A stretch of 51,828 nucleotides of DNA from Candidatus Fermentithermobacillaceae bacterium UBA3907 (GCA_002391545.1 DGFF01000011.1:1-51828), one strand, 5' to 3'. Positions 3,722 through 51,756 are shown, numbered from the stretch's first letter. Made by a program: numbers and translations. The notes: generated by a model from the sequence alone, not told the origin.

Positions 3722-4740
3722 AGGTAGGAATAACGGGTAATCCTCAAGTAGGCAAAACAACTCTTTTTAGGCTGCTTACAGGTTCTAGTCCTGGGTCTAG
3801 CTTAAGTAGGGTTGGGGTCATGGAGGTTCCTGATGAGCGATTACCCCAGTTATCTAGGATATTTGAAAGGCCTAAGTCGACGTACGCCAGGATAGACCTG
3901 GTGGATATAATGCACCACAGAGGGCAGGACCTTCTAAATGAGGTCCGCAACTTGGATGCGGTTGTGATTGTTGTAGGCGCTTTTTTAGGTGAAGAGGAGG
4001 TTAAAGAGTCTCTAGATTTTGTGGATTCCCTTGTAACCGATTTCTATGTAGCAGATTTGGTGTCTGTAGAAAATAGACTGGAGAAACTGCAGAGCAAGAA
4101 GACGAAACCTGTAAATCAAATGGAGATTCCTTTCCTTATGAAGTGCAAAAGAGCCCTAGATGAAGATTTGTTGCTCAAAGAAGTAGAATTTGCCCCCCAT
4201 GAGATAGATTTCTTGTCGAGTTTTTCTTTTTACACACTAAAGCCCATAATATTAGCTGTAAACCTGTCTGAAGAACAACTTCTGTCTGGAACCTATCCAG
4301 GCATGAAAGATGTACGTGAATTAGCAGATGCCCAAGGGTATGAGGTAGTTAGATTCTCAGGTGTTCTTGAGGAAGAGATAAGCGCCTTGTCTCCAGAAGA
4401 CGGTTCTTTATTCCTACAAGAATTTGGCCTTGAGGAATCGGGTATTGCAAGACTTGCTAAGGTGACATATAGCGCCCTGGGCCTTATAACGTTCTTTACT
4501 GTAAGCGCAGATGAGGTTAGAGCTTGGAGCATACCGAAGGGCACTACTGTAAAAGAAGCAGCAGGCAAGATTCATACCGATTTGGAACGCGGTTTCATCC
4601 GTGCCGATGTAGTCTCATACCAGGACCTTATTTCGGCAGGATCTTTGAAAGCTTCAAAAGAAAAAGGCCTTCTTCGAGTAGAAGGCAAGGAATATATAGT
4701 GCAAGATGGGGACGTGATAAACGTTAGGTTTAACGTGTAA
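3718..4740 (+). CDS. Divergent YchF-family (DUF933) P-loop NTPase
   Basis: P-loop is GNPQVGKTT. The C-terminal block ITFFTVSADEVRAWSIPKGTTVKEAAGKIHTDLERGFIRADVVSYQDL...EGKEYIVQDGDVINVRFNV matches the YchF C-terminal signature. The start overlaps the upstream stop (ATGA at 3718-3721). Confidence 0.8.
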   Translation: MKVGITGNPQVGKTTLFRLLTGSSPGSSLSRVGVMEVPDERLPQLSRIFERPKSTYARIDLVDIMHHRGQDLLNEVRNLDAVVIVVGAFLGEEEVKESLDFVDSLVTDFYVADLVSVENRLEKLQSKKTKPVNQMEIPFLMKCKRALDEDLLLKEVEFAPHEIDFLSSFSFYTLKPIILAVNLSEEQLLSGTYPGMKDVRELADAQGYEVVRFSGVLEEEISALSPEDGSLFLQEFGLEESGIARLAKVTYSALGLITFFTVSADEVRAWSIPKGTTVKEAAGKIHTDLERGFIRADVVSYQDLISAGSLKASKEKGLLRVEGKEYIVQDGDVINVRFNV

Positions 4741-4747
4741 CCTTTTA

Positions 4748-5956
4748 TCAAATTCCCCCGCAAAGCCCGCAGCTTGCACATGACGGATTTGAGTCTAGAT
4801 ATACTCTTCTGTCGTTTAGAAGCTGATGGCAATTGGCGTTCTTTATTAGCCTAACAGGTATGAGTACTCCGGCTATAATAGTGACTGACCCAATCAGAAT
4901 CGACACTGCATATGCGCTCCATGGTAACGTCATTCCTTGTTCGAGGAATGTGGTGAGGTATCTTCCTCCAAATACTCCCAAAATAATACCTGGTATTCCC
5001 ATGTAAGCCGCCTCCACAAACATCATTCGTGCTAGGTCGGAAGTGGTGCCACCCAAAACGCGCATTATTCCCAAAGGACGTTTACGGTCGAGGAAAGCTA
5101 CTATCAGAACGCAGGTGATAGCTACAGCGGTTGCCATAAGCACTAGTATAGATACTACGTGCATTATCGAAAACGCGCCTTTGGCAGCTTTCTCCAAGGA
5201 AGTTTGTCCCGAAAACGGACTAACTATTATACTAGCTCCATATCGCTTATTTTCAATCTCTGCAAGCACTGTACCTTTGCTGGTTGAAAAACCTTCGTCT
5301 ACTTCCAGTATTACGCCAGGCAAAAAGCCGGGGATGTTCTCTATTGTAGATGGGTTCACTGAAGCCCAACCGTAAAGGGGGGAATGTTCCTCGCTTTGGC
5401 TGCTGTTAACGTTTACATGTTGCCATTGCAATTCTACTAAAGGACCATATTCATTCATATGCCATGCGATTATTTGCGGGTTGGATTCGCCCTTCGTTTG
5501 AGATGGCGATATAGGGAAGAAGAGCTCAATAGTATCATCGGGCAAATCTACACCGTCTCCAAGCAGGTACAGAGGTCCTACAGTGCTTTCCACTTTTAAG
5601 CAAGGCACTTGCGTCACATTTATTTTATGGGAAAGTTGGCGATAGTCGCCTTCCAGAAACGAGTTCAGGGCTCCTTCGCTGCTAAACACCATCAAACCGT
5701 CAAAGGGCAAAGCCCCCTGTTCGACTCGGGCAGTTATAGATTCTACGTTTCTGGCGATGACGGTTGTTACAAGAAAAGAGACAGCGACGCTTATGGTAAC
5801 GGCGATTAAAACGATGACTGCAAAAAAAGGAGTGTAGCGAATTCTTCGGCGAGCTATCAGACTGTACAAAGGGAACAAGTTCGCCTTTTCAGCTTTTATT
5901 TCCATAGCGCCCGCCGGTAATTGGGCTGCGTCTTGCGCTTTAGATGAGCCTGCCAT
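4748..5956 (-). CDS. ABC transporter permease, FtsX/MacB-like (1 TM + large extracytoplasmic domain + 3 C-terminal TMs) with a Cys-rich tail
   Basis: 402-aa ORF with AAAGGAGAG SD 6 nt before the ATG at 5956. Topology is an N-terminal TM ([20 protein letters not shown]), about 200 aa of soluble sequence, then a hydrophobic C-terminal FtsX-like block. It ends [13 protein letters not shown]. Confidence 0.75.
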
Positions 5957-6650
5957 ATTTGTCTCTCCTTTCCTCTATTTCGCCGTCTCTCAGTTTTACA
6001 GCAATATCTGCGTACTCCAAAAAAGATGGTTCGTGGGTAGCGACGATAAAAGTTTGGTCTTCTTCTTTATTAAACTTAGAAAAGAGTTCCATTATTTCCC
6101 TAGAGCGAGCTGAATCAAGGTTTCCAGTAGGCTCGTCTGCCAATATTACACTGGGTTTGGTAGCCAGAGCTCTGCAAATGGCAACCCGTTGTTGCTCACC
6201 TCCGCTCAATTCAGATGGATAGTGATTTTGTCTGTCTTCAATGCCTACTGCTTCTAGCAGAAATGAAACTCTCTCTGATACCTCTTTATCGGTATACCCC
6301 GCTAACCGCATAGGGAAACCTATATTCTCTACAGCGGTAAGCTCGGGCAAAAGGTTGAAGAACTGAAACACCATGCCTATTTCGGTCCTTCGCATTATGG
6401 CCAAGTCATCCTCTGAAAGGCGAGAAAATTTTCTGCCCTTTAGAATCACTTCACCATGGCTAGGTCTGTCTATACCCCCGAGAATATTCAAAAGGGTGCT
6501 TTTACCCGACCCTGATGGTCCCATAAGTACAACAAACTGACCTTTTTCAACTTCCAGGTCCACATCTCTTAACGCGAACAAACCATCACCAACAGCATAA
6601 AACTTTGATATTTCATGGCAACTGATAACGGGACCGACCCATTCACTCAC
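5940..6650 (-). CDS. ABC transporter ATP-binding protein (MacB/LolD-type)
   Basis: Walker [13 protein letters not shown], signature [11 protein letters not shown], Walker [12 protein letters not shown]. It overlaps both flanking permease genes. Confidence 0.92.
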
Positions 6651-8103
6651 GCCTTAGCACCTCCGAACATGGTAATTTAGAAGCCCAATATGCGACTGCA
6701 AAGCCAATACCTAATGAAAGGGCTAGAGAAAGCCCAGTGATTATGCCAAAGTCAGTTAATACTTGGATAAACCAGCTCTTAATGGGTATATCCGAACCCA
6801 GAAGCGACACAAGATATATCAAATCGCCAAAGATAGCCCCTGAGCAAGTACCCACGATAGAGATGTACCCGCACATAGTGAGTACATACTGTCTGATATC
6901 CTTGGAGGTGGCTCCTACAACTCGAAACAACCCTATCTTGCGTCTTTGTTGTACCGTAATGATGTATATATTTCCCGCAACTACAATAGAGGAAAATACA
7001 ATTAGAAGTACGGAAAACAGCTTGTGTAGGTCAGGAGGCATTACTACATGGCCTTTTGAGCTTACAGTGTAAATAACTTCAGGTATCGTATACACCCCGT
7101 AATCGCTGCCGAGTGCATTTCTGATAAGGGAAGTAGTCTTTTTGACTTCAGCTACAGTGTCTACTGTTACCGTTATCTGGTACGACGGAAACATTGTGCC
7201 AAATTCAACAAGGTAATGATCATCAACGTTAGAATCTATCTCTCGCATTATGTTTTCAAAAAGGTCCATGGGGATGAGAACTTCGGGTCTATTCCAGAAT
7301 ATCGGTATCGTAGGTGGTTCAGGAGACTCTATCTGGTTCCAGGTTTCATAGTCTATTTCCTCGCCTGTTTGAATCTTGTAACCGCCTTGAACTGATAGAG
7401 AATATTGAGCTACGTTCTTCCAGTTGATGCCCATGTTCAAAGCACCAATGCCACTGGCCGAAATGAATTCTGCTAATGTAGGTTCAGGGAGTACTATCTG
7501 GAACGTGTCGCCAATTCTAAGGTATGGAAAGTTGTCAGCGGCCAATGGGACTAAGGCTTCTTTATGCTGCGTAGCAGTTTCGGAGAAGTGGGTACCGTCT
7601 GTTATGTATGCGTCCAACGGGAACTCAGGACCTTGTTCAAATCCTCTAAGTACAGCTGGAAACTGACCTTCCTTTGTAACGATTAAGCACGGTAAGGATC
7701 TGTAAACGTGGACATTTTTCACATTTGGGATATCCTGTATAGAATCGAGGATCTCTTGAGGAATCATTGCTCGCCACCCGAGGCAAGTTTTTTCAGTGAG
7801 ATAACCTGTGGATTCAATATCAGGAAAATATTGGTCAATGTGGGATTGCCAATCGCTCCCTCGCCAGGCGTGCCACACTAGCGTAGAAGCATCTGATGAT
7901 GATAAAGGGCTGTTGGCTGGAAATATGATTATATCCCCTTGAGAAATTGTACGTTCTGGTCGCGCCATTTCTGCTCCGTAACCCTCTGGGAGGATTCGAA
8001 GGAAAATGATGATTATAGTTGCTATGGCAGTAACTACGACGGCTATCCGTGTTCTAGTGGGATCTCGCCGAATTTCTGTTATAGCAAGTCTTGAGAAATC
8101 CAA
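6643..8103 (-). CDS. ABC transporter permease, FtsX/MacB-like
   Basis: 486-aa ORF with TTG start at 8103, preceded by AGGTGA 6 nt upstream. It has an N-terminal TM, about 330 aa of extracytoplasmic region and a C-terminal FtsX-type 3-TM block. Confidence 0.75.
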   Translation of the reverse strand: MDFSRLAITEIRRDPTRTRIAVVVTAIATIIIIFLRILPEGYGAEMARPERTISQGDIIIFPANSPLSSSDASTLVWHAWRGSDWQSHIDQYFPDIESTGYLTEKTCLGWRAMIPQEILDSIQDIPNVKNVHVYRSLPCLIVTKEGQFPAVLRGFEQGPEFPLDAYITDGTHFSETATQHKEALVPLAADNFPYLRIGDTFQIVLPEPTLAEFISASGIGALNMGINWKNVAQYSLSVQGGYKIQTGEEIDYETWNQIESPEPPTIPIFWNRPEVLIPMDLFENIMREIDSNVDDHYLVEFGTMFPSYQITVTVDTVAEVKKTTSLIRNALGSDYGVYTIPEVIYTVSSKGHVVMPPDLHKLFSVLLIVFSSIVVAGNIYIITVQQRRKIGLFRVVGATSKDIRQYVLTMCGYISIVGTCSGAIFGDLIYLVSLLGSDIPIKSWFIQVLTDFGIITGLSLALSLGIGFAVAYWASKLPCSEVLRRE

Positions 8104-39998: not shown

Positions 39999-40016
39999 AT
40001 AAAGCAGGTGATCCCC

Positions 40017-41330
40017 ATGAGAGATGTGTATTATTTTAAATTCATAGGCGCAAGAACACGTCAAGAAAAGGCTGATAGCGCTGCTCACTCTAGATTCCCT
40101 ACTGCTGTGGCTTTTCAGGATATTATCTTAGATTGTGACGAAAAGGCTTTTAAAGAAGGAGTAAGGCCTGGAGATACTGTTAGACAAGCTCAATTGGCTT
40201 CACCTTCATGCCAAATAATTATAACTTCCGATAAAAGTCCCTATGTGTTAACCAGCGTAATCGACGTGCTATCTTCTGTAACTTTATTTGTTGAACTTGA
40301 TGAAAGAGATTGCGGGGTGTTTCTGCAGGACCCAGATAAACCCTTAACCGAAGTGCTCTCTCTTTTAGACGGCATGTTCGACATGGCCATTGTTACCAAA
40401 AGCAGATCTAAATTCCTAACAAAATGTTCTTCTATTTGGGTATCCCAAAAGGTATTTAAGGGACATAAGATATTATCTTCTAAGAAATCATGGGGACGCA
40501 TTGAAGTAGGTAACAATTACATTTTAGTAGATGTGGAACAAGGAAAGGAAAAGACCTTTCTAGCAAATATGCCCCTTGCTCTTCTGTGGCCCTTACCGCC
40601 AGATGTAATATCTATTTTATATTCCTTGGGCTTTAAAACTTTTAAGGATCTACAGCAAATTTCACCTTCTCAGTTAACTTATCAAATTGGAGATTGGGCG
40701 CATACGGTTATTAACTGCGTAAATGGTGAAGATATTTCACTAGTAAATCCGCTTACCGCGAAACTATGTATAGAAAAAATCGTGGAACTTGAAAATATGG
40801 ATTTAGATAAGGCGCTAAAAGAGGTCGCCGAAGAGTTTGCACAAAATGGCCTAGGAGCTAAACACATAACTGTAACTTTGGCAGGGGATTTTCCGCCTGT
40901 TGTGAGAGAAAAGAAATCGATTCGTCCTTTATACAGTTTTGAATCGTTAAAAAGTGTCGTGTCCAATCTAATCCAAGAGGTAGCTAACGATCTTGGTAAC
41001 TTCTCTTTTCGCAAGCCATCGACTGTTTCTATTTTCTTCAGAGATATTGAACAAGTATCGGTGAGACAAATGTTTTTAATGGAACATTTCACTGGTAATC
41101 GAGAGAACCGGCGCTTAGACTTGGGTAATTCTGAAGCGTCAGTTTCTTTGGAATCTGTCCTTTCAGATATAGAGAAAAAGTACGGGGAGTCGGTTCTGGC
41201 ATGGGGATGGGAGTGTGAACAGAAACAAAGTGATGTTTTCAGGCCAGAAATTTTGCGGCGCGAGAAGATGCTATCTTTTTGGGATCCTACTAGGTTTAGG
41301 GAAGGGGGAGAGTTTACGTGTCCAAGGTGA
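40017..41330 (+). CDS. imuB: ImuB-like Y-family DNA polymerase homologue lacking the catalytic acidic motif
   Basis: The Y-family thumb/HhH-like block MPLALLWPLPPDVISILYSLGFKTFKDLQQISPSQL is present. The N-terminus has no DxD...FFASVE-type motif. The gene sits directly upstream of dnaE2 behind an SOS box. ATG 40017 (AGGTGA 5 nt upstream) is preferred over GTG 40008. Confidence 0.6.
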   Translation: MRDVYYFKFIGARTRQEKADSAAHSRFPTAVAFQDIILDCDEKAFKEGVRPGDTVRQAQLASPSCQIIITSDKSPYVLTSVIDVLSSVTLFVELDERDCGVFLQDPDKPLTEVLSLLDGMFDMAIVTKSRSKFLTKCSSIWVSQKVFKGHKILSSKKSWGRIEVGNNYILVDVEQGKEKTFLANMPLALLWPLPPDVISILYSLGFKTFKDLQQISPSQLTYQIGDWAHTVINCVNGEDISLVNPLTAKLCIEKIVELENMDLDKALKEVAEEFAQNGLGAKHITVTLAGDFPPVVREKKSIRPLYSFESLKSVVSNLIQEVANDLGNFSFRKPSTVSIFFRDIEQVSVRQMFLMEHFTGNRENRRLDLGNSEASVSLESVLSDIEKKYGESVLAWGWECEQKQSDVFRPEILRREKMLSFWDPTRFREGGEFTCPR

Positions 41331-41557
41331 TAGACCAGCCTGTTCTAATGGTAGTTGAAGATGGAGAACCTAAACGATTCTTTTGGATAAAAAAATGGGT
41401 GAATGTAAAAGATGTGGTAGATAAATGGAGCGAATCTGGGCGATGGTGGGATGAAGAAAGAGAAAAGACGTTTTACAGGGTTTTAGGGGGCGAAGGCGGA
41501 GTATATGAGATTTACTTCGATAATAAACATTGGAAACTTTACAAGGTGTTTGACTAA
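41318..41557 (+). CDS. Small Trp-rich protein of the mutagenesis cassette (79 aa)
   Basis: GTG start with GGGGGAG 7 nt upstream. It overlaps the imuB-like stop by 13 nt and ends 2 nt before dnaE2. 6 Trp in 79 aa (FFWIKKW, GRWWDEE). Confidence 0.6.
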   Translation: MSKVIDQPVLMVVEDGEPKRFFWIKKWVNVKDVVDKWSESGRWWDEEREKTFYRVLGGEGGVYEIYFDNKHWKLYKVFD

Positions 41558-41559
41558 AT

Positions 41560-44500
41560 ATGTTTACCCATCTTCATGTTCATAGCCCTTTTTCCTTTTT
41601 AGACGGGGCATCGAGCATAACGGAACTTGTAACAAAAGCGGCGGAGATAGGGATGACTTCGTTAGCTATTACCGATCATAACAACGTTTCAGGTGCAGTA
41701 AGGTTCATCAAAGCCTCACGCGAAGCAGGCATAAAACCTATAATCGGATGCGAAGTTACTATGGAAGGCGGTTTCCACCTTACTTTGCTGTGTAAAAATG
41801 ACGCAGGTTATAGAAATCTTTGCAGTATTTTGACTGATGCGCATTTATCCAATAAACGTGGACAGCCTGAGGTAAGTTTAACTTCTTTGGCCCTTCACAA
41901 AGAGGGACTTTTTGTCCTTTCAGGATGTAGGAAGGGACTAATCCCTTCTTTGATCTTGCAAAAAAGATTCAAGGAGGCTTTAGAAATAGCCCAAGATTAC
42001 AAAAATGTTTTTGGGAAGGAGTCGTTTTTTATTGAAGTTTCTGAGTCTCTTCTCCCAGGTTCTATGAGCCTGAATAGAAATCTTTGGCAATTGGCTGACA
42101 TTGTGGATTTACATAGTGTTGTAACAAACAATGTGCATTACGCCGAAAAAGAAGATTTCAAAATTCACGATATTTTAACCTGTATCCGCACGTCAACCAA
42201 ACTAGAAGATGTCCATCCAGAAAGACGCCTTAATAGGGAAAACTATTTGAAGACAGAAATGGAGATGGGAATAGAACATGCAGATTATTGCGAGGGCCTC
42301 CACAATTCCTGGGCTTTAGCCAAAGAATGTGAATGCCCTTTAGAATTAGGCACGCCGAATTTCCCTGCTTTTGACTACTATGAAGGATTCAGTTCTGCAA
42401 GTCATTTTTTGCGTCATCTAGTGTATCTAGGGGCGGAGCAACGTTACGGAAAAGTGACGTCTGATATAAAAGCGCGGTTGGACCGGGAATTAAACGTAAT
42501 AAATCATTTGGGCTACGCAGATTATTTTTTGGTAGTATGGGATCTTGTGAAATTTGCTACAAGATGTGGTATTCGGCATGCAGGAAGAGGCTCAGCTGCC
42601 GATTCTGCAGTGGCGTATTGCCTTGGCATCACCGATGTAGATCCTATTGCCCAGAACCTTTTATTTGAAAGGTTTATGAGTCTTGAGCGAGGGGAAAAAC
42701 CTGATATCGACATCGATTTTGATGCAAGGCGAAGAGACGAAGTTACAGCGTATGTGTACAGCAAGTACGGGGATGAACATGTGGCGTCAGTAGCTACATA
42801 CAATACTTTTCAAGGTCGTTCGTCCATTAGGGAAGTAGGCAAGGTTATGGGGTATTCCCCTGACGAGATAGACTTAATAGCAAAACGTCTACCTCATGTT
42901 CCTGGCTATATGCTGGAAAATGTATTCAAAACATTGCCTGAACTGAAAAACTTAGATATTCCTGAAAAAAGGCTTAATGTTCTTGTTGAAACTGCATCGA
43001 AGCTTAGCGGTTTACCACGATATCTAGGTACTCATCTAGGTGGAGTAGTTATCTCTAGGAATCCTATTACGCAGTTTTCACCGTTAGAGAAGTCGGCCAA
43101 AGGGGTCAAAATATTGCAGTTTGATAAAGACGATGTAGAAGATTTGGGACTTGTGAAAATCGACCTCTTGTCTTTAAGAACTTTAGGCGCAGTTGAAGAT
43201 TCACTGAGGTTTGCCGGAACTGGTTCGGGACTTGATTATGATGGTATACCCCTAGACGACCCAGACACTTTTAACAGGCTAAAGTCTGCAGATACTGTAG
43301 GTATTTTCCAATTGGAAAGTCCTGCTCAAAGGGGACTTCAAGGGAGGCTAGAGGCTGAAAACATAGAAGACGTAGTAGCAAGCGTGGCGCTGATAAGGCC
43401 GGGGCCGATCAAAGGCAATATGGTCGAACCTTTTATAAAACGTCGCAAAGGGGAAGAAGAAGTAAAATATTTGGACCCGCGCCTTGAAGGGATTTTGGGA
43501 AAAACGTACGGGGTAATATTGTTTCAAGAACAAGTTATTGAAATCGCTTCAACTATTGGAGGATTTACCCCAGGGGAAGCAGACAATTTGCGAAGAACCA
43601 TGACACACGGTAGATCTGTTGAGGAAATGGAAAAGATAGGTGAAACCTTTATTGAAAGGGCGGTGCAAAACGGAGTCCAGGAAGAAGCTGCTCGCGAGAT
43701 ATTTGAGTGTATGAAAGGATACGCAAGTTACGGTTTTTGTGAAGCCCATGCCCGGGCTTTTGCCACTACTGCTTACAAAACAGGTTACCTGATTCAGCAC
43801 TATCCCGCCGAATTCTACGGAGCTATATTAAATAACCAACCTATGGGGTTTTATCCTGTATCTACTGTATGTGTTGAAGCTGAAAGGCATGGCGTAGAAA
43901 TCCTAGGTCCTTCAGTGAATCAGTCGGAAAAAGAGGTTTCAGTGAAGGGAAACGGCATTCGCATTCCGTTTAAAATGATAAAGGGAATGACCGAAAGAGC
44001 CATGGAATCAATAATTTCTGAAAGGGAAAAGGGAGGGAAGTTTAGTTCCGCAAATGATTTTATGAAACGAGTGAAGTTAGATAAAGATATTATGCGAAAT
44101 CTTATCTTATGCGGTGCGTTTGATGAATTTGGGGTTTTTCGGAGAACCCTTTTATGGCAATGCAAAGATTTGTATCTTGCCGATAGTAGTGGGCAGAAAG
44201 AAACTTTGGTCGAACCTTCTTATTATGAATATCCAAATATTTCTGAGGCAGAGTTTTCTTTAGAAGAGAAAGTATCTTACGAGTATGAAATACTTGGGTT
44301 TGGAATTTCTGCCCATCCTATGGAAATATGGAGAGATAAACTCAAAGAGAAAGGATTCACGTCTAGCCAAGAGATTTGCATGGTTAAAGCAGGTGACTTT
44401 GTCAAAGTTGGAGGCATTCCTGTGAGACCTCATAGACCTCCTACGAAAAGCGGAAGGACTGTAGTATTTCTTTCTCTAGAAGATGAGTGCGGATTAGTGG

Positions 44501-44658
44501 ACGTAACGTGTTTCGAACAGGTATATGCCAAGTATGGAGAATTTCTGTTTCCAGGGGAACGTTTGCCTTTAGGGATATGGGGTCAAGTTCAAAAGCGCGG
44601 TAACACGTTTTCCATAGTAGCTAAGACCGTGTTCCCTCTGTCGTATGTCCTGTCTTAA
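41560..44658 (+). CDS. dnaE2: Error-prone DNA polymerase (DnaE2-type Pol III alpha homologue)
   Basis: N-terminal PHP motif HLHVHSPFSFLDGAS...AITDHNN and Pol III alpha core (GRGSAADSAVAYCLGIT, PDIDIDF, FQLES). The 1032-aa length and the SOS-box/imuB-like context fit DnaE2 rather than the replicative DnaE. Confidence 0.82.
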   Translation: MFTHLHVHSPFSFLDGASSITELVTKAAEIGMTSLAITDHNNVSGAVRFIKASREAGIKPIIGCEVTMEGGFHLTLLCKNDAGYRNLCSILTDAHLSNKRGQPEVSLTSLALHKEGLFVLSGCRKGLIPSLILQKRFKEALEIAQDYKNVFGKESFFIEVSESLLPGSMSLNRNLWQLADIVDLHSVVTNNVHYAEKEDFKIHDILTCIRTSTKLEDVHPERRLNRENYLKTEMEMGIEHADYCEGLHNSWALAKECECPLELGTPNFPAFDYYEGFSSASHFLRHLVYLGAEQRYGKVTSDIKARLDRELNVINHLGYADYFLVVWDLVKFATRCGIRHAGRGSAADSAVAYCLGITDVDPIAQNLLFERFMSLERGEKPDIDIDFDARRRDEVTAYVYSKYGDEHVASVATYNTFQGRSSIREVGKVMGYSPDEIDLIAKRLPHVPGYMLENVFKTLPELKNLDIPEKRLNVLVETASKLSGLPRYLGTHLGGVVISRNPITQFSPLEKSAKGVKILQFDKDDVEDLGLVKIDLLSLRTLGAVEDSLRFAGTGSGLDYDGIPLDDPDTFNRLKSADTVGIFQLESPAQRGLQGRLEAENIEDVVASVALIRPGPIKGNMVEPFIKRRKGEEEVKYLDPRLEGILGKTYGVILFQEQVIEIASTIGGFTPGEADNLRRTMTHGRSVEEMEKIGETFIERAVQNGVQEEAAREIFECMKGYASYGFCEAHARAFATTAYKTGYLIQHYPAEFYGAILNNQPMGFYPVSTVCVEAERHGVEILGPSVNQSEKEVSVKGNGIRIPFKMIKGMTERAMESIISEREKGGKFSSANDFMKRVKLDKDIMRNLILCGAFDEFGVFRRTLLWQCKDLYLADSSGQKETLVEPSYYEYPNISEAEFSLEEKVSYEYEILGFGISAHPMEIWRDKLKEKGFTSSQEICMVKAGDFVKVGGIPVRPHRPPTKSGRTVVFLSLEDECGLVDVTCFEQVYAKYGEFLFPGERLPLGIWGQVQKRGNTFSIVAKTVFPLSYVLS

Positions 44659-46472: not shown

Positions 46473-46534
46473 TTTTAGCGGTTTCCCCCAGAGCAGGGCC
46501 TACAATCCTTGCAGGGGACGCGAGGTGTTAAACG

Positions 46535-47398
46535 GTGTGGTTTGTATGGTTTCCTATAGGGTTAGCTGTCCTTGCATGGTTTGGGTATGTATGGATAAAA
46601 ACTCTTGTAACTAAATATGAACATACAATAGAATCTATAATACTCCTCGGTGTACTCTTAGTTACAGGTGTAATTCTAGGTTTGAACATTTCCTATGCTG
46701 TTGCCCCCGAGTGGACGTTGTGGCCAAGGATTGTTCTAACGGCAAGTCTAGGCTTTGGTCTTTTCATTGTTTTTTCTTACGTGGCGGTGAATCTTTGGTG
46801 CTCACTTTTGGCAAGCGGGTTCGATGAGAAAATCGAACTTCTTGAAGAAGAGGCTGCTAAAATTGAGCAACGTTTGGCATTCCTCCGCTTGGCCGAGGTG
46901 AGCAAAAATGATAGAAGTTACTCTCCAAAGGTAGATTATGAAAAAGAGGCCCAAGATGTGGTTGACATAGATTCGCTAGAAGAACTGAGAAAGTTTGTTG
47001 AGAGTTGGCAGCAGGCTGGGGGCGAGGCTAGGGTTCGTTCAATTAAAGTAACGGAATGGCGAGAAGAAGTAGTGCGAATGTCAGACCAAGATCTCAAAGA
47101 TGAGGAAGAGGCCCTCATTTTGGAGATTAATAGCGAGGTTGACGAAGGAAAGAAGGATCAGGCTCAAGCACGATTGGCTGTGCTAAAGATCGAGAGTCTG
47201 CGACGGGATATGAGGCGTTCTACCAGACGTGAAGAACGTCAAAGGATTGAAGGACCAACAAAGATCTACCCAACATCTGAAATGGAATACCTGCATAATA
47301 GGCTGCGGGAGATAAATGCTGAAATTCAGCAGATAGAAGAAGAGAAACAAGCGTTTTTTGAAGGCATAATTAAATTATCATGGAGGGAACGTCCATGA
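46535..47398 (+). CDS. Membrane-anchored coiled-coil protein (3 predicted TMs plus charged helical C-terminal half)
   Basis: Hydrophobic segments are FVWFPIGLAVLAWFGYVWI, IILLGVLLVTGVILGLNISYAV and IVLTASLGFGLFIVFSYVAVNLWCSLLA. About 190 aa of E/K/R-rich sequence follow. GTG start, GAGGTG SD. Confidence 0.6.
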   Translation: MWFVWFPIGLAVLAWFGYVWIKTLVTKYEHTIESIILLGVLLVTGVILGLNISYAVAPEWTLWPRIVLTASLGFGLFIVFSYVAVNLWCSLLASGFDEKIELLEEEAAKIEQRLAFLRLAEVSKNDRSYSPKVDYEKEAQDVVDIDSLEELRKFVESWQQAGGEARVRSIKVTEWREEVVRMSDQDLKDEEEALILEINSEVDEGKKDQAQARLAVLKIESLRRDMRRSTRREERQRIEGPTKIYPTSEMEYLHNRLREINAEIQQIEEEKQAFFEGIIKLSWRERP

Positions 47399-47835
47399 GC
47401 CATATAAGCTCGTACGATACTGACATAGTGCTTCAGACGGCGGTCCTACATGGCCGTCCAGTTGAAGAAGATCCAGGGTGGGAGATACTTCAGGAAGCCA
47501 TCTATGCGTGCGCTGAGGAGATGGATTTGGAGGTGGGGCGCACCATAAGAGATTACTATGGGAGACTTGTCTATTGTGATTGGTCCCTATCTGGCCCTAC
47601 TTTTGATCGTGGTGTAGGAATAAAGGTAGATAGAAAAACAGGCAGGGTCATGTTTCTGTGCGATACCTACGGTGGCTATGATCTACTAGCGAGAAGAATT
47701 AGGGATAGAATTGTCCAAAATTTCACGGCGCTATGTGTGACAAAGGCCCTTTCTGCTCTCAACTACGATGTTGAACTGGAGGAACTGAGGGATCCGATTG
47801 AGGGCAAGAAAGTGTTTGTAAAGGGAGTGCTGTGA
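47395..47835 (+). CDS. DUF1257 (Ycf35-like) family protein
   Basis: Begins MSHIS, the N-terminus I associate with DUF1257/Ycf35. ATG 47395 overlaps the upstream TGA (ATGA) and has GGAGGG 7 nt upstream. The ORF track starts at 47380. Confidence 0.6.
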   Translation: MSHISSYDTDIVLQTAVLHGRPVEEDPGWEILQEAIYACAEEMDLEVGRTIRDYYGRLVYCDWSLSGPTFDRGVGIKVDRKTGRVMFLCDTYGGYDLLARRIRDRIVQNFTALCVTKALSALNYDVELEELRDPIEGKKVFVKGVL

Positions 47836-48071
47836 TGACGAGGGAGATACGTATTAATATTGGGGCAGAAGGGCGCATGACAATAGAATTCGTAGGATTT
47901 CCAGGAGAAACTTGCTTTGACGAAGCTGAGCTCTTGGCTGGCATTTTAAAAGAAATGGGCCTGTGGGCAGTTCCGATAACAGTGACCCCGAAAACTGCTG
48001 AGGAGATAGCTTTAGAAGTAGACGAAGCTGGGCAAGAAATTGATGAAAAAAAGAGGGTGTCTCATTCTTGA
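47835..48071 (+). CDS. DUF2997-like small protein
   Basis: REIRINIGAEGRMTIEFVGFPGETCFDEAELLAGILKEMG fits the DUF2997 pattern (I.I..DG.V...V.G..G..C......L...LG) as I remember it. The start overlaps the upstream stop (TGATG). AAGGGAG SD. Confidence 0.55.
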   Translation: MTREIRINIGAEGRMTIEFVGFPGETCFDEAELLAGILKEMGLWAVPITVTPKTAEEIALEVDEAGQEIDEKKRVSHS

Positions 48072-48235
48072 CAGTGACCACTATTCCGCTAGAGTCGTAT
48101 ATCGAAGTAGAAATAGAAAATGATGTTATTGTGATTTTCGAGAGAGCAGGCGATGGTAAGACCCAGGAGCTTGTAGATTTGCTTAGGCGGTACGGGTTGG
48201 ATTTGACTGTTCGCGTTAACGCTCTTTGTGGTTAA
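48068..48235 (+). CDS. Small ORF (55 aa) below the ORF-track length cutoff
   Basis: My translation is MTVTTIPLESYIEVEIENDVIVIFERAGDGKTQELVDLLRRYGLDLTVRVNALCG. The TTG start overlaps the previous stop (TTGA). It exactly fills the gap to the AAA+ gene, whose SD overlaps this ORF's stop codon. Confidence 0.5.
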   Translation: MTVTTIPLESYIEVEIENDVIVIFERAGDGKTQELVDLLRRYGLDLTVRVNALCG

Positions 48236-48246
48236 GGAGGTATAAC

Positions 48247-49953
48247 TTGTACGAAAACTATTTAGATGATTCCTGGATAAGGCAAGGGGTGGTTAAGCGC
48301 AAAGCCAATTATTCTCCTATTATATGCTTTGAGACTGTAGACCCTAAAAGGATATATCAACTTAAGTCTTTTGCATTGTCGGATCCAGATTTTGCGCATA
48401 TTGAAAACATATTCTTGTACGATCCATGGGACGGATTGGGCATGCTTAGGATGGGCAGCGAGGGTCCGCGTTTTGAGCCTATCAAGAAGCGGATCCCTAC
48501 ACAAACTGCATTGTCCTCTAGAACTAGGACAGAGGTTTCCACTGATATACAGGCCCTTAAGGCGGCTTTAAAAGAGGTGGACAGCTACTTAAAGGTGTCC
48601 CCTACCCTTTTTATTCTGCAGAATCTTTCTGAGGTAAGGGAGTACGACACCGGATTCCAAGCGGCTCTAAGGGCGTGGGCAATAGATCCGTATATTACTG
48701 CTAAAGGCTCCTCGGTCATGATTCTTACTCAAGATGTGTCTCGTCTCATGGACGAATTTACCAAAGAGTTTTGCGTCATCATTGAAGTGGATCCTTCTAG
48801 CCATGATGAAAGATCGAAACTCATAGAGTCTGTCGCTATGGAACTTGGGGTATCCATAGATGGCTCGAAATTGGAAGCTGCAACGGTAGCCATGTCTGGG
48901 CTGAACTTGCATCAGATCGAAAGCATTTTGCTTGAGTCGTATCAAAGGACCAAGGATTTTGATCCCAATGTGATGAAGGAACTTAAATCTGAGATGGTGA
49001 AACGATCTAAAATACTGGAGGTGCGGGATCCGCAATACACGTTTGGCGATATTGGCGGTTATCACGCGATCAAGGACTTTATCATAAAATACATGATTAA
49101 CGTGCTTAAGCGGCCGGAGAGAGCCAGGCATTTTGGACTTGGCTTGCCGAAAGGGCTTTTGTTTTTCGGACCTCCTGGTACAGGAAAGAGCTTGTTTGCC
49201 AATGCTCTTGCCAGCGAAGTTCAGCTTCCTTTCATAAATCTGGTTACAGAGAACATATACTCAAAATGGCTAGGTGAGTCAGGACAAAACATGAAAAACG
49301 CGATTACTTTGGCAGAAAAAATGTCTCCTGCCATAGTTTTTGTTGATGAGATAGATAGGTTTGGCAAGAGAACTGGGGCAGCGGCAGGTTCGGCTGAAGA
49401 AGAAACTCAGAGGGTGTTTTCCCAGTTTCTCGAGTGGCTAGGTATGCCTGATAGGTCTGCCATAATAGTTGGTACTACTAACGTTCCAGAGCACTTGGAT
49501 GACGCGTTTTTGCGGGCAGGGAGATTTGATTACAAGATTCCCTTTTTGTACCCAGGACCTCAAGCTAGGCACGAGATTCTCATGGTACACTTAGGATTAA
49601 CAGAAGGGTCCAGCAAGAAACGGGCTCCTCTGGAAATCGGAGAGGACGAGATCGGAGATTTTCTATGGGAAGAGATCGTACCGTTGACCCATAATTTTTC
49701 CTGTGCTGAGTTGGAAGAATTGATAATTAGGTCCAAGAGGATTGCGTTTGATAAAGAGAAAGATGCGATTGGAAAGCAAGAAATTTTACAGGCTACGAAG
49801 ACCTTTAGAATTGATTCGTCATACCGAAAGCATGTAGTTGAGATGTGCATGCAACAGGCGAGAAGGTTTACTGACGATCAGTCTTTTCTTGACGCTATTG
49901 AAGAAGAGAATAGAATGTATGAGAATAGTAGGAAGAGTTCTTTGGCGCGATAG
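48247..49953 (+). CDS. AAA+ ATPase, Ycf46-like (single AAA module with about 290-aa N-terminal domain)
   Basis: Walker A GPPGTGKS, Walker B IVFVDEID, arginine-finger region RAGRFD. The N-domain strings SPIICFETVDPKRIYQL and FLYDPWDGLG resemble Ycf46. TTG 48247 with a perfect AAGGAGG 6 nt upstream is preferred over TTG 48226. Confidence 0.75.
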   Translation: MYENYLDDSWIRQGVVKRKANYSPIICFETVDPKRIYQLKSFALSDPDFAHIENIFLYDPWDGLGMLRMGSEGPRFEPIKKRIPTQTALSSRTRTEVSTDIQALKAALKEVDSYLKVSPTLFILQNLSEVREYDTGFQAALRAWAIDPYITAKGSSVMILTQDVSRLMDEFTKEFCVIIEVDPSSHDERSKLIESVAMELGVSIDGSKLEAATVAMSGLNLHQIESILLESYQRTKDFDPNVMKELKSEMVKRSKILEVRDPQYTFGDIGGYHAIKDFIIKYMINVLKRPERARHFGLGLPKGLLFFGPPGTGKSLFANALASEVQLPFINLVTENIYSKWLGESGQNMKNAITLAEKMSPAIVFVDEIDRFGKRTGAAAGSAEEETQRVFSQFLEWLGMPDRSAIIVGTTNVPEHLDDAFLRAGRFDYKIPFLYPGPQARHEILMVHLGLTEGSSKKRAPLEIGEDEIGDFLWEEIVPLTHNFSCAELEELIIRSKRIAFDKEKDAIGKQEILQATKTFRIDSSYRKHVVEMCMQQARRFTDDQSFLDAIEEENRMYENSRKSSLAR

Positions 49954-50261: not shown

Positions 50262-50379
50262 GATAGCATCAAAATGATACCATTAAGAATCGGCGTGGTA
50301 CCTTATAGGCGTACTGCTTAAGTGGGGTCATCGTTTCCCACCCTTATTTATTGGGGCATCTGAAAGAGGTGCTTACCAG

Positions 50380-51593: not shown

Positions 51594-51668
51594 GGGCGAA
51601 TAGCTCAGCGGGAGAGCACCTGCCTTACACGCAGGGGGTCACAGGTTCAATCCCTGTTTCGCCCACCA
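51594..51668 (+). tRNA. tRNA-Val (anticodon TAC), CCA encoded
   Basis: Hand-folded cloverleaf: acceptor GGGCGAA/TTCGCCC, D arm GCTC-AGCGGGA-GAGC, anticodon arm CCTGC-CTTACAC-GCAGG, T arm ACAGG-TTCAATC-CCTGT, then A-CCA. Confidence 0.9.
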
Positions 51669-51678
51669 ACGAGAACGC

Positions 51679-51756
51679 GGAGGCGTGGTGTAGCCGGTCT
51701 AACATACGTGCCTGTCACGCACGAGATCGCGGGTTCAAATCCCGTCGCCTCCGCCA
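51679..51756 (+). tRNA. tRNA-Asp (anticodon GTC), CCA encoded
   Basis: Hand-folded cloverleaf: acceptor GGAGGCG/CGCCTCC, D stem GTGT/ACAT, anticodon arm CGTGC-CTGTCAC-GCACG, T arm GCGGG-TTCAAAT-CCCGT, then G-CCA. Confidence 0.88.

Follow-up and report, generated by a model that had tools for sequence, protein, structure and literature searches.

What do five overlapping genes encode together when their closest named relatives are orphan families of cyanobacteria and plastids and their host belongs to a non-photosynthetic Bacillota lineage? The genes occupy positions 46535-49953 of a 51,828-nucleotide stretch of DNA from Candidatus Fermentithermobacillaceae bacterium UBA3907 (GCA_002391545.1 DGFF01000011.1:1-51828), referred to here as the window; in 5' to 3' order they are named P1, P2, P3, P4 and ATPase, and all lie on the plus strand. 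To our knowledge, DUF1257 (Ycf35), DUF2997 and Ycf46 are long-standing orphans of cyanobacteria and algal plastids, none of them with a known mechanism, and in the literature searched no paper ties DUF1257 or DUF2997 to an AAA+ ATPase or describes the module. A sequence-only reading of the window had proposed that the genes form an operon for an AAA+ machine that is associated with the membrane and has small partners, a proposal that is now backed by gene co-occurrence, gene fusions and the adjacency of membrane partners. We lean towards the view that the five genes specify a single AAA+ machine, associated with the membrane, that remodels proteins and has a complex of three proteins dedicated to it, as cofactor or as client.

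Inspection of the open reading frames (ORFs) and their junctions shows five co-directional genes in which start/stop overlaps link P1 to P2, P2 to P3, and P3 to P4 (Table 1); the ATGA, TGATG and TTGA overlaps reported in the sequence-only reading were recovered position by position. Each of the five genes carries a Shine-Dalgarno (SD)-like sequence 6-8 nucleotides 5' of its start, and that of the ATPase gene (AAGGAGG, 48234-48240) overlaps the stop codon TAA of P4 (48233-48235), as had been claimed. A terminator scan found none within the module, the first plus-strand candidate (50322-50341) lying 3' of a NifU-like gene, and the setting is chromosomal, an ordinary stretch of Bacillota genome. 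The small ORFs are real genes, because P4, P3 and P2 are conserved across 68, 75 and 75 loci, respectively.

Gene order was compared in 80 genome loci fetched around relatives of the ATPase (36-82% identity), together with iterative searches using each window protein, and its conservation in related genomes was evident. Among the 71 loci with at least 1.9 kb of upstream flank, P2 and P3 lie directly 5' of the ATPase gene on the same strand in 68, and all four partners are present in 60; the median gap between P2 and P3 is -1 nucleotide (74 loci). The flanks, which comprise ~28 neighbour families upstream and ~31 downstream, change around this core, and neighbourhood clustering found no gene family broadly shared across the loci beyond the module itself. 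The module ranges over Bacillota, Acetothermia, a deltaproteobacterial metagenome-assembled genome (MAG) and Archaeoglobus. The most divergent modules, those of archaea, Acetothermia, L075 and L076, keep P2, P3 and the ATPase but have no P4. The genes adjoining the module in the window do not share this persistence: an AIR-synthase-related (AIRS-like) gene adjoins it in 34/82 loci and a NifU-like gene in 40/82, in each case within the closest clade only. The AIRS-like gene, earlier suggested to share the transcript, is therefore not part of the module, since that gene is restricted to the closest clade while the module persists in ~28 other upstream contexts. Read-through transcription from the AIRS-like gene into the module may nevertheless occur in this genome, because no terminator was found between them and the spacer has a fold z of 0.38.

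Fusions add physical linkage to this conserved order. P2 and P3 are fused as one ORF in L074-L076, and 11 independent P2-P3 fusions occur among the 150 best representative DUF1257-like proteins, their P3 portions recognized by the P3 hidden Markov model (HMM) with E values of 4e-19 to 2.5e-6. In one representative protein, P0189, all three of P2, P3 and P4 are joined, in that order, and the chain closes with RSMCG (P4 HMM E=3e-8); after 10 nucleotides its gene is followed by an ATPase gene whose product is 46% identical to the window ATPase over its full length, and that gene in turn overlaps one encoding a polytopic membrane protein whose tail is a long coiled coil. The order of parts within the fusions always leaves free the conserved N-terminal Met-Ser of P2 and, at the other end, the C-terminal Cys-Gly of P4. 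Because the five genes stay together while their flanks change, their starts and stops overlap, and fusions recur, we conclude that they act as a unit. An apparent AAA-P2 fusion, P0036, was discarded as an assembly chimera, its parts being joined by DVYKRQ, the translation of a Nextera transposase adapter.

The identity of P2 emerged only through its relatives. No match to Pfam DUF1257 (PF06868) was found with P2 even at E<=10, and an NCBIfam scan was also empty. Its immediate family is small and tight, with 37 clusters among 5.8 billion proteins and a Pfam label on none of the 37. A profile of this family recovered 246 of 1.84 billion representative proteins, and 18 of the 104 that were scanned are Pfam DUF1257 proteins; five of the profile matches (P0188, P0191, P0192, P0198 and P0203; E 1e-16 to 1e-13) exceed the DUF1257 gathering score, with 22.5-29.7 bits. 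Because its family profile reaches proteins above the DUF1257 threshold, P2 is assigned, transitively only, as a divergent member of the DUF1257 (Ycf35) superfamily. The earlier DUF1257/Ycf35 label thus survives as a remote relationship through the family profile and not as a direct Pfam match. The N-terminal Met-Ser-His of P2 is conserved, and its AlphaFold2 model (predicted local distance difference test, pLDDT, 95) has the predicted topology beta-alpha-beta4-alpha-beta2. Foldseek comparison of this model with the PDB returned no significant solved relative (best E=0.15), and sequence searches of the PDB with P2 and P3 gave nothing meaningful. A TBP-like likeness of the P2 model, to RnlA N-domains and a phosphohexomutase C-domain, was too weak to be claimed. 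The predicted structure also gave one viral match, to which no name is attached.

P3 is related to DUF2997 more directly. The window protein scores 14.9 bits (E=0.025) against Pfam DUF2997 (PF11211), covering model positions 1-25 of 47 and falling below the gathering score of 24.1 bits, whereas 36 of 49 P3 homologues match PF11211 at E<=0.01, the best at 2.6e-7. These homologues were taken from the fetched loci, as a word-indexed homologue search returned the query alone. At the level of the family, P3 can be classed as a DUF2997 protein; the corresponding claim of the sequence-only reading is upheld for the homologues and remains sub-threshold for the single window protein. Residues G21, C27, L38, G42 and K53 of P3 are invariant, Cys27 being present in 49/49 homologues.

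For P4, the 55-residue ORF, direct Pfam and NCBIfam scans were empty. When its profile was aligned with that of P3 by hhalign, however, the two matched with a probability of 90% (E=1.4e-6), as compared with E=0.32 for a P1 control, and its C-terminal Cys-Gly (48227-48232 here) is found in 67/68 homologues. Profile comparison thus identifies P4 as a short DUF2997 paralogue: the ORF that had been listed without a family is a genuine conserved gene, with its identity now corrected and with a near-invariant C-terminal Cys-Gly. The P3 profile also aligns weakly with a beta-hairpin and the following helix inside DUF1257 domains (P0188, HMM E=5e-4; hhalign E=0.008), and stretches resembling the DUF2997 profile lie at residues 58-73 and 100-121 of P0188 and at residues 71-131 of the window P2. 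There are hints that P2, P3 and P4 all descend from one beta-beta-alpha-beta unit.

P1 supplies a membrane component. Hydropathy analysis places ~3 transmembrane segments within residues 1-96 (46535-46822) and after them a cytoplasmic domain of ~190 residues, charged and coiled-coil-like; the three transmembrane helices and charged stretch described for the first product were therefore borne out. Columns of a conserved cytoplasmic motif (Table 1) are at least 90% conserved among 70 P1 homologues. Direct scans yielded no consistent Pfam or NCBIfam family for P1, only coiled-coil noise matches. Homologues of P1 lie directly 5' of P2 in 70 loci, with a distant relative in L075 (E=4e-18). The archaeal loci L080 and L081 have, directly upstream in the P1 position, a protein of ~4 transmembrane segments that is not homologous to P1, and L086 has a coupled gene downstream for a protein that is both polytopic and coiled-coil. 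A membrane protein adjoins the module in every locus that was checked individually.

The fifth gene encodes the only product with a clear direct Pfam match in the module, an AAA domain (PF00004, E=2.5e-31). The motifs on which the sequence-only reading had relied, GPPGTGKS, VFVDEID and RAGRFD, are all present. In 20 homologues that are 55-81% identical, Walker A, Walker B (VDEID), the KWLG pore loop (aromatic-hydrophobic-Gly) and the SRH arginine fingers R423 and R426 do not vary. With all four motif types intact, the protein fits the class of classic-clade AAA+ translocases, as judged by sequence. Its identity across Bacillota loci is 53-82%. The nearest solved sequences to residues 258-526 are the D2 modules of VAT, Cdc48 and p97 (E ~1e-86). 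The N-terminal half (residues 1-255) gave no sequence match in any search, and hhalign detected no similarity between it and the protein's own AAA half; at the P-loop position it has the conserved CFETxDPxR, and at the Walker B position QNLSE. In the AlphaFold2 model of the ATPase (mean pLDDT 76), however, the secondary-structure order of this half is that of an AAA+ core with a four-helix lid, and Foldseek aligns the full model with the D1-D2 tandems of Cdc48, p97 and Rix7 over ~600 columns (TM-score ~0.6, E ~1e-22). The N-terminal half is accordingly modelled as a degenerate D1-like AAA module, which would give a Cdc48/p97-like tandem. The former description of a single module with a long N-domain is corrected in that the N-domain is reread, from the model and Foldseek, as a predicted D1-like module. 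A 154-residue ORF runs antisense inside the ATPase gene (48667-49131, minus strand), and comparable antisense ORFs recur in other loci, where they produced spurious "families" in the neighbourhood clustering; most likely they are non-coding shadows of a conserved gene.

Comparison with characterized AAA+ proteins indicates a motor of a familiar kind in an unfamiliar setting. Like Cdc48, p97 and VAT, the window ATPase combines an active module nearest their D2 with a pore loop of the KW[LF]G type and a pair of arginine fingers, its full model superposes on their D1-D2 tandem, and it apparently has dedicated small cofactors and a membrane partner, as in endoplasmic-reticulum-associated degradation. 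Unlike them, it lacks a double-psi-barrel N-domain according to the model and Pfam, beginning directly with the D1-like module, which has neither Walker A nor Walker B and no sequence similarity to AAA; its partners are DUF1257/DUF2997 proteins rather than cofactors of the UBX, SHP or VIM type. The ATPase falls far below every curated family cut-off, including those for PAN, FtsH, CDC48, CdvC, IteA and Mpa. Against the Cdc48 model TIGR01243 it scores 137.4 bits, with a cut-off of 802.65, over residues 244-492 only, and against the FtsH model TIGR01241 142 bits, with a cut-off of 600, and it has no M41 protease domain and no transmembrane segment. Matches to PAN and Mpa-ARC, proteasomal ATPases with a coiled-coil and OB N-domain, are confined to the AAA module (78-152 bits vs curated 500-750).

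The small proteins invite comparison with cyanobacteria and plastids, to whose Ycf35 and DUF2997 families P2 and P3 are tied and where the two genes are likewise adjacent as a duf2997-ycf35 pair (PMC4284462). The window P2 and P3, in contrast, fall below both Pfam thresholds, and their host is non-photosynthetic; moreover, the cyanobacterial pair clusters with the ferredoxin gene fed7, whereas in the window the pair is joined by genes for a membrane protein, an AAA+ ATPase and one more small paralogue. Ycf46 (slr0374 / Synpcc7942_0417), a stress-induced, KaiC-interacting AAA ATPase encoded in a three-gene operon (bioRxiv 10.1101/2025.07.21.665879; PMC7496141), resembles the window ATPase by description, with ~500-570 residues, one recognizable C-terminal AAA domain and a small operon; its known operon partners slr0373 and slr0376, however, are not reported as DUF1257/DUF2997 proteins. 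In our own count from Table S3 of PMC5940233, ycf35 and ycf46 are both present in 98 of 127 red-algal plastomes, singly in 8 and 3, and both absent from 18 (Fisher p=5e-13, phylogeny ignored). This association is consistent with a common function yet unspecific, because ycf34 and pbsA show similar behaviour.

These observations can be assembled into a working model of the machine. The ATPase would form a double-ring hexamer in which an inactive D1-like ring is stacked on an active D2-like ring, and the D2 ring would thread a protein substrate by means of its aromatic KWLG pore loop. P2, P3 and P4 would form a stoichiometric heteromeric complex serving as a dedicated cofactor, or possibly an obligate client, of the motor, and would dock most likely on the inactive D1-like ring, as p97 cofactors do on the N-D1 face. 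P1, with its transmembrane segments and coiled coil, would anchor the assembly at the cytoplasmic membrane or target it there. The substrate is probably a membrane or membrane-proximal protein, handled in a housekeeping or stress role; high conservation of the ATPase, a chromosomal setting and the lack of any mobile-element copies found are housekeeping-like traits of the module. The unity of the operon, the fusion-supported association of P2, P3 and P4, the integrity of the ATPase motifs and the adjacency of a membrane partner are shown by computation. Several points weigh on the other side. The 3/71 loci that lack P2 and P3 contain the remotest ATPases (36-38% identity) in other contexts, and the D1-like assignment comes from a model of moderate confidence (pLDDT 76) and structure comparison, with no sequence similarity to AAA. 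The P2-P3-P4 complex may be an adaptor or a client, both of which fit the model, and the invariant thiols (Cys27 of P3 and the Cys-Gly of P4) suggest chemistry beyond that of a pure adaptor. Finally, the interactions, the oligomer and the substrate are inferred parts of the model.

The thiols also open another way to read P2-P3-P4, one that we consider unlikely, in which they are the cargo itself, a thiol-bearing carrier of a metal, an Fe-S cluster, sulfur or an acyl group that the ATPase loads, unloads or recycles at a membrane client defined by P1. Cys27 is kept in all fusions as well as in every P3 homologue, and the Cys-Gly end of P4, left free by every fusion order, would serve as a swinging C-terminal arm. 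The penultimate-Cys C-terminal arms of DsrC and TusE are sulfur carriers, which provides a lead only. The clustering of cyanobacterial duf2997-ycf35 with fed7 (PMC4284462) and the NifU-like gene 3' of the ATPase in the close clade point in the same direction, but the NifU adjacency goes no further than that clade (40/82 loci), a single Cys per protein does not make a recognizable cluster-binding motif, Pfam, NCBIfam and PDB sequence scans gave no match to known metal- or sulfur-carrier families, and the most divergent modules dispense with P4 yet retain P2, P3 and the ATPase. We give little credence to the further idea that the module is the non-photosynthetic counterpart of a cyanobacterial/plastid Ycf46 stress checkpoint, with the ATPase as the Ycf46 orthologue remodelling regulatory proteins under stress and with Ycf35/DUF2997-type partners, even though it is compatible with the one-machine reading. 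The membership of P2 and P3 in the Ycf35 and DUF2997 families, the associated presence of ycf35 and ycf46 across the 127 plastomes and the name "SpoVK/Ycf46/Vps4 family" that JGI gives to some homologues would agree with it. That name is a generic COG label, however, the plastome association ignores phylogeny and has similar patterns in ycf34 and pbsA, cyanobacterial ycf35 and duf2997 cluster with fed7 and not with ycf46, and none of the 80 best genome matches, in a scan that used narrow peptide patterns, is a cyanobacterial locus.

A role in anti-phage defence or in conflict, with an IetA-like AAA+ ATPase at the core of the system, is very improbable, and we reject it. The ATPase does match the PADLOC IetA models (108 bits) and NCBIfam IteA (NF042959, 91.8 bits), and a 36%-identical Verrucomicrobia ATPase adjoins a JAB+E1-like fusion; the IetA/IteA similarity is confined to the generic AAA module (residues 279-524 for PADLOC), however, the IteA score of 92 bits is far below a 510-bit cut-off, the N-terminal half is different, and there is no IetS-like protease, the other four proteins having no PADLOC match. 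Conservation of the ATPase is high, the module keeps a stable chromosomal synteny within the clade, and there is no mobile-element context: the ATPase had no matches in phage, plasmid or IMG/VR collections, and P2 had none in phage. In L078 (3510-5784, minus strand, and 5842-7623) the Verrucomicrobial ATPase has no DUF1257/DUF2997 partners; its neighbours are the JAB/MPN+E1-like fusion (521 residues) and a 240-residue protein, so that this remote branch of the ATPase family seems to sit in a setting of ubiquitin-like conjugation or of defence. That the genes are mere neighbours through local synteny, with no common function, has almost no probability left. The closest genomes do keep the unrelated flanks RsmD, AIRS-like and NifU as well, but the five genes persist amid ~28-31 neighbour families on each side, their starts and stops overlap, and the core trio is kept in archaea; the multiple independent fusions and the context data effectively refute it. 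A single membrane-associated AAA+ machine is the preferred account of the module.

Two further loci bear on the range of arrangements in which these genes occur. In L088 (2705-6904) a DUF1257-DUF2997 fusion adjoins a different AAA ATPase, of 635 residues, 26% identical and with another N-terminal half, and the locus also holds a vWA-like protein in which DVTGSM forms a MIDAS-like motif. Because this fusion adjoins a different ATPase, the DUF1257-DUF2997 pair may partner with more than one AAA subfamily. In L031, from one MAG, an IS607-like insertion (4202-5854), made up of a fragment of a serine-recombinase TnpA and a 283-residue TnpB-like ORF, separates P4 from the ATPase gene. Elsewhere in the window, upstream of the module, an ImuB-like gene, a small DUF6504 gene and a DnaE2-type polymerase gene (1032 residues, PHP domain) form a cassette (40008-44658) that looks like an error-prone polymerase mutasome, on the basis of synteny with Pfam-labelled genes in L001 and L002; two tRNA genes lie near the window end (Table 1).

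Table 1. Positions of the module genes, their principal motifs and two tRNA genes, numbered from the first nucleotide of the window (aa, amino acids).
Feature	Position	Strand	Details
P1 gene	46535(GTG)-47398	+	287 aa; SD GAGGTG 46522-46527
P1 conserved cytoplasmic motif W-x3-GG-x-AR-x-RS-x-KV-x-EW	47006-47059	+	residues 158-175
P2 gene	47395-47835	+	146 aa; junction ATGA 47395-47398; SD GGAGGG 47382-47387
P3 gene	47835-48071	+	78 aa; junction TGATG 47833-47837; SD AAGGGAG 47821-47827
P3 invariant Cys27	47913-47915	+	within GFxGxxC loop
P4 gene	48068(TTG)-48235	+	55 aa; junction TTGA 48068-48071; SD GAGGGTG 48053-48059
ATPase gene	48247(TTG)-49953	+	568 aa; SD AAGGAGG 48234-48240
ATPase N-terminal half	48247-49011	+	residues 1-255; predicted degenerate D1-like AAA module, no Walker motifs
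ATPase C-terminal half	49012-49953	+	residues 256-568; classic-clade AAA module with C-terminal helical extension
Walker A GPPGTGKS	49168-49191	+	
Pore loop KWLG	49264-49275	+	
Walker B D367/E368	49345-49350	+	
Arginine fingers R423, R426	49513-49515 and 49522-49524	+	
tRNA-Val (tac)	51594-51668		near window end
tRNA-Asp (gtc)	51679-51756		near window end

This operon, together with the related loci of bacteria and archaea and the fusions, is genomic evidence that DUF1257 and DUF2997 proteins form one complex, and further that this complex works with a Cdc48-like AAA+ motor and that the motor does so at a membrane. Two orphan families, DUF1257 and DUF2997, are linked here for the first time with a machine powered by ATP, and in bacteria and archaea a subfamily of AAA+ proteins is defined whose D1-like ring is predicted to be inactive. 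The motor itself is of a known kind; what is new is the predicted dead-D1 architecture, a cofactor set that includes a fold with no structural match, and a seemingly obligatory membrane partner. It thereby becomes possible to study by experiment what three orphan "ycf"-type families do. A more speculative proposal, which we regard as rather improbable, is that the module is an ancient bacterial/archaeal machine of which Ycf35, the DUF2997 protein and Ycf46 are the photosynthetic version, with the thiols carrying a cofactor or modification that the motor delivers to, or strips from, membrane proteins. If this were true, the orphans of plastids and cyanobacteria and the operon described here would be parts of one undescribed machine common to bacteria and archaea.

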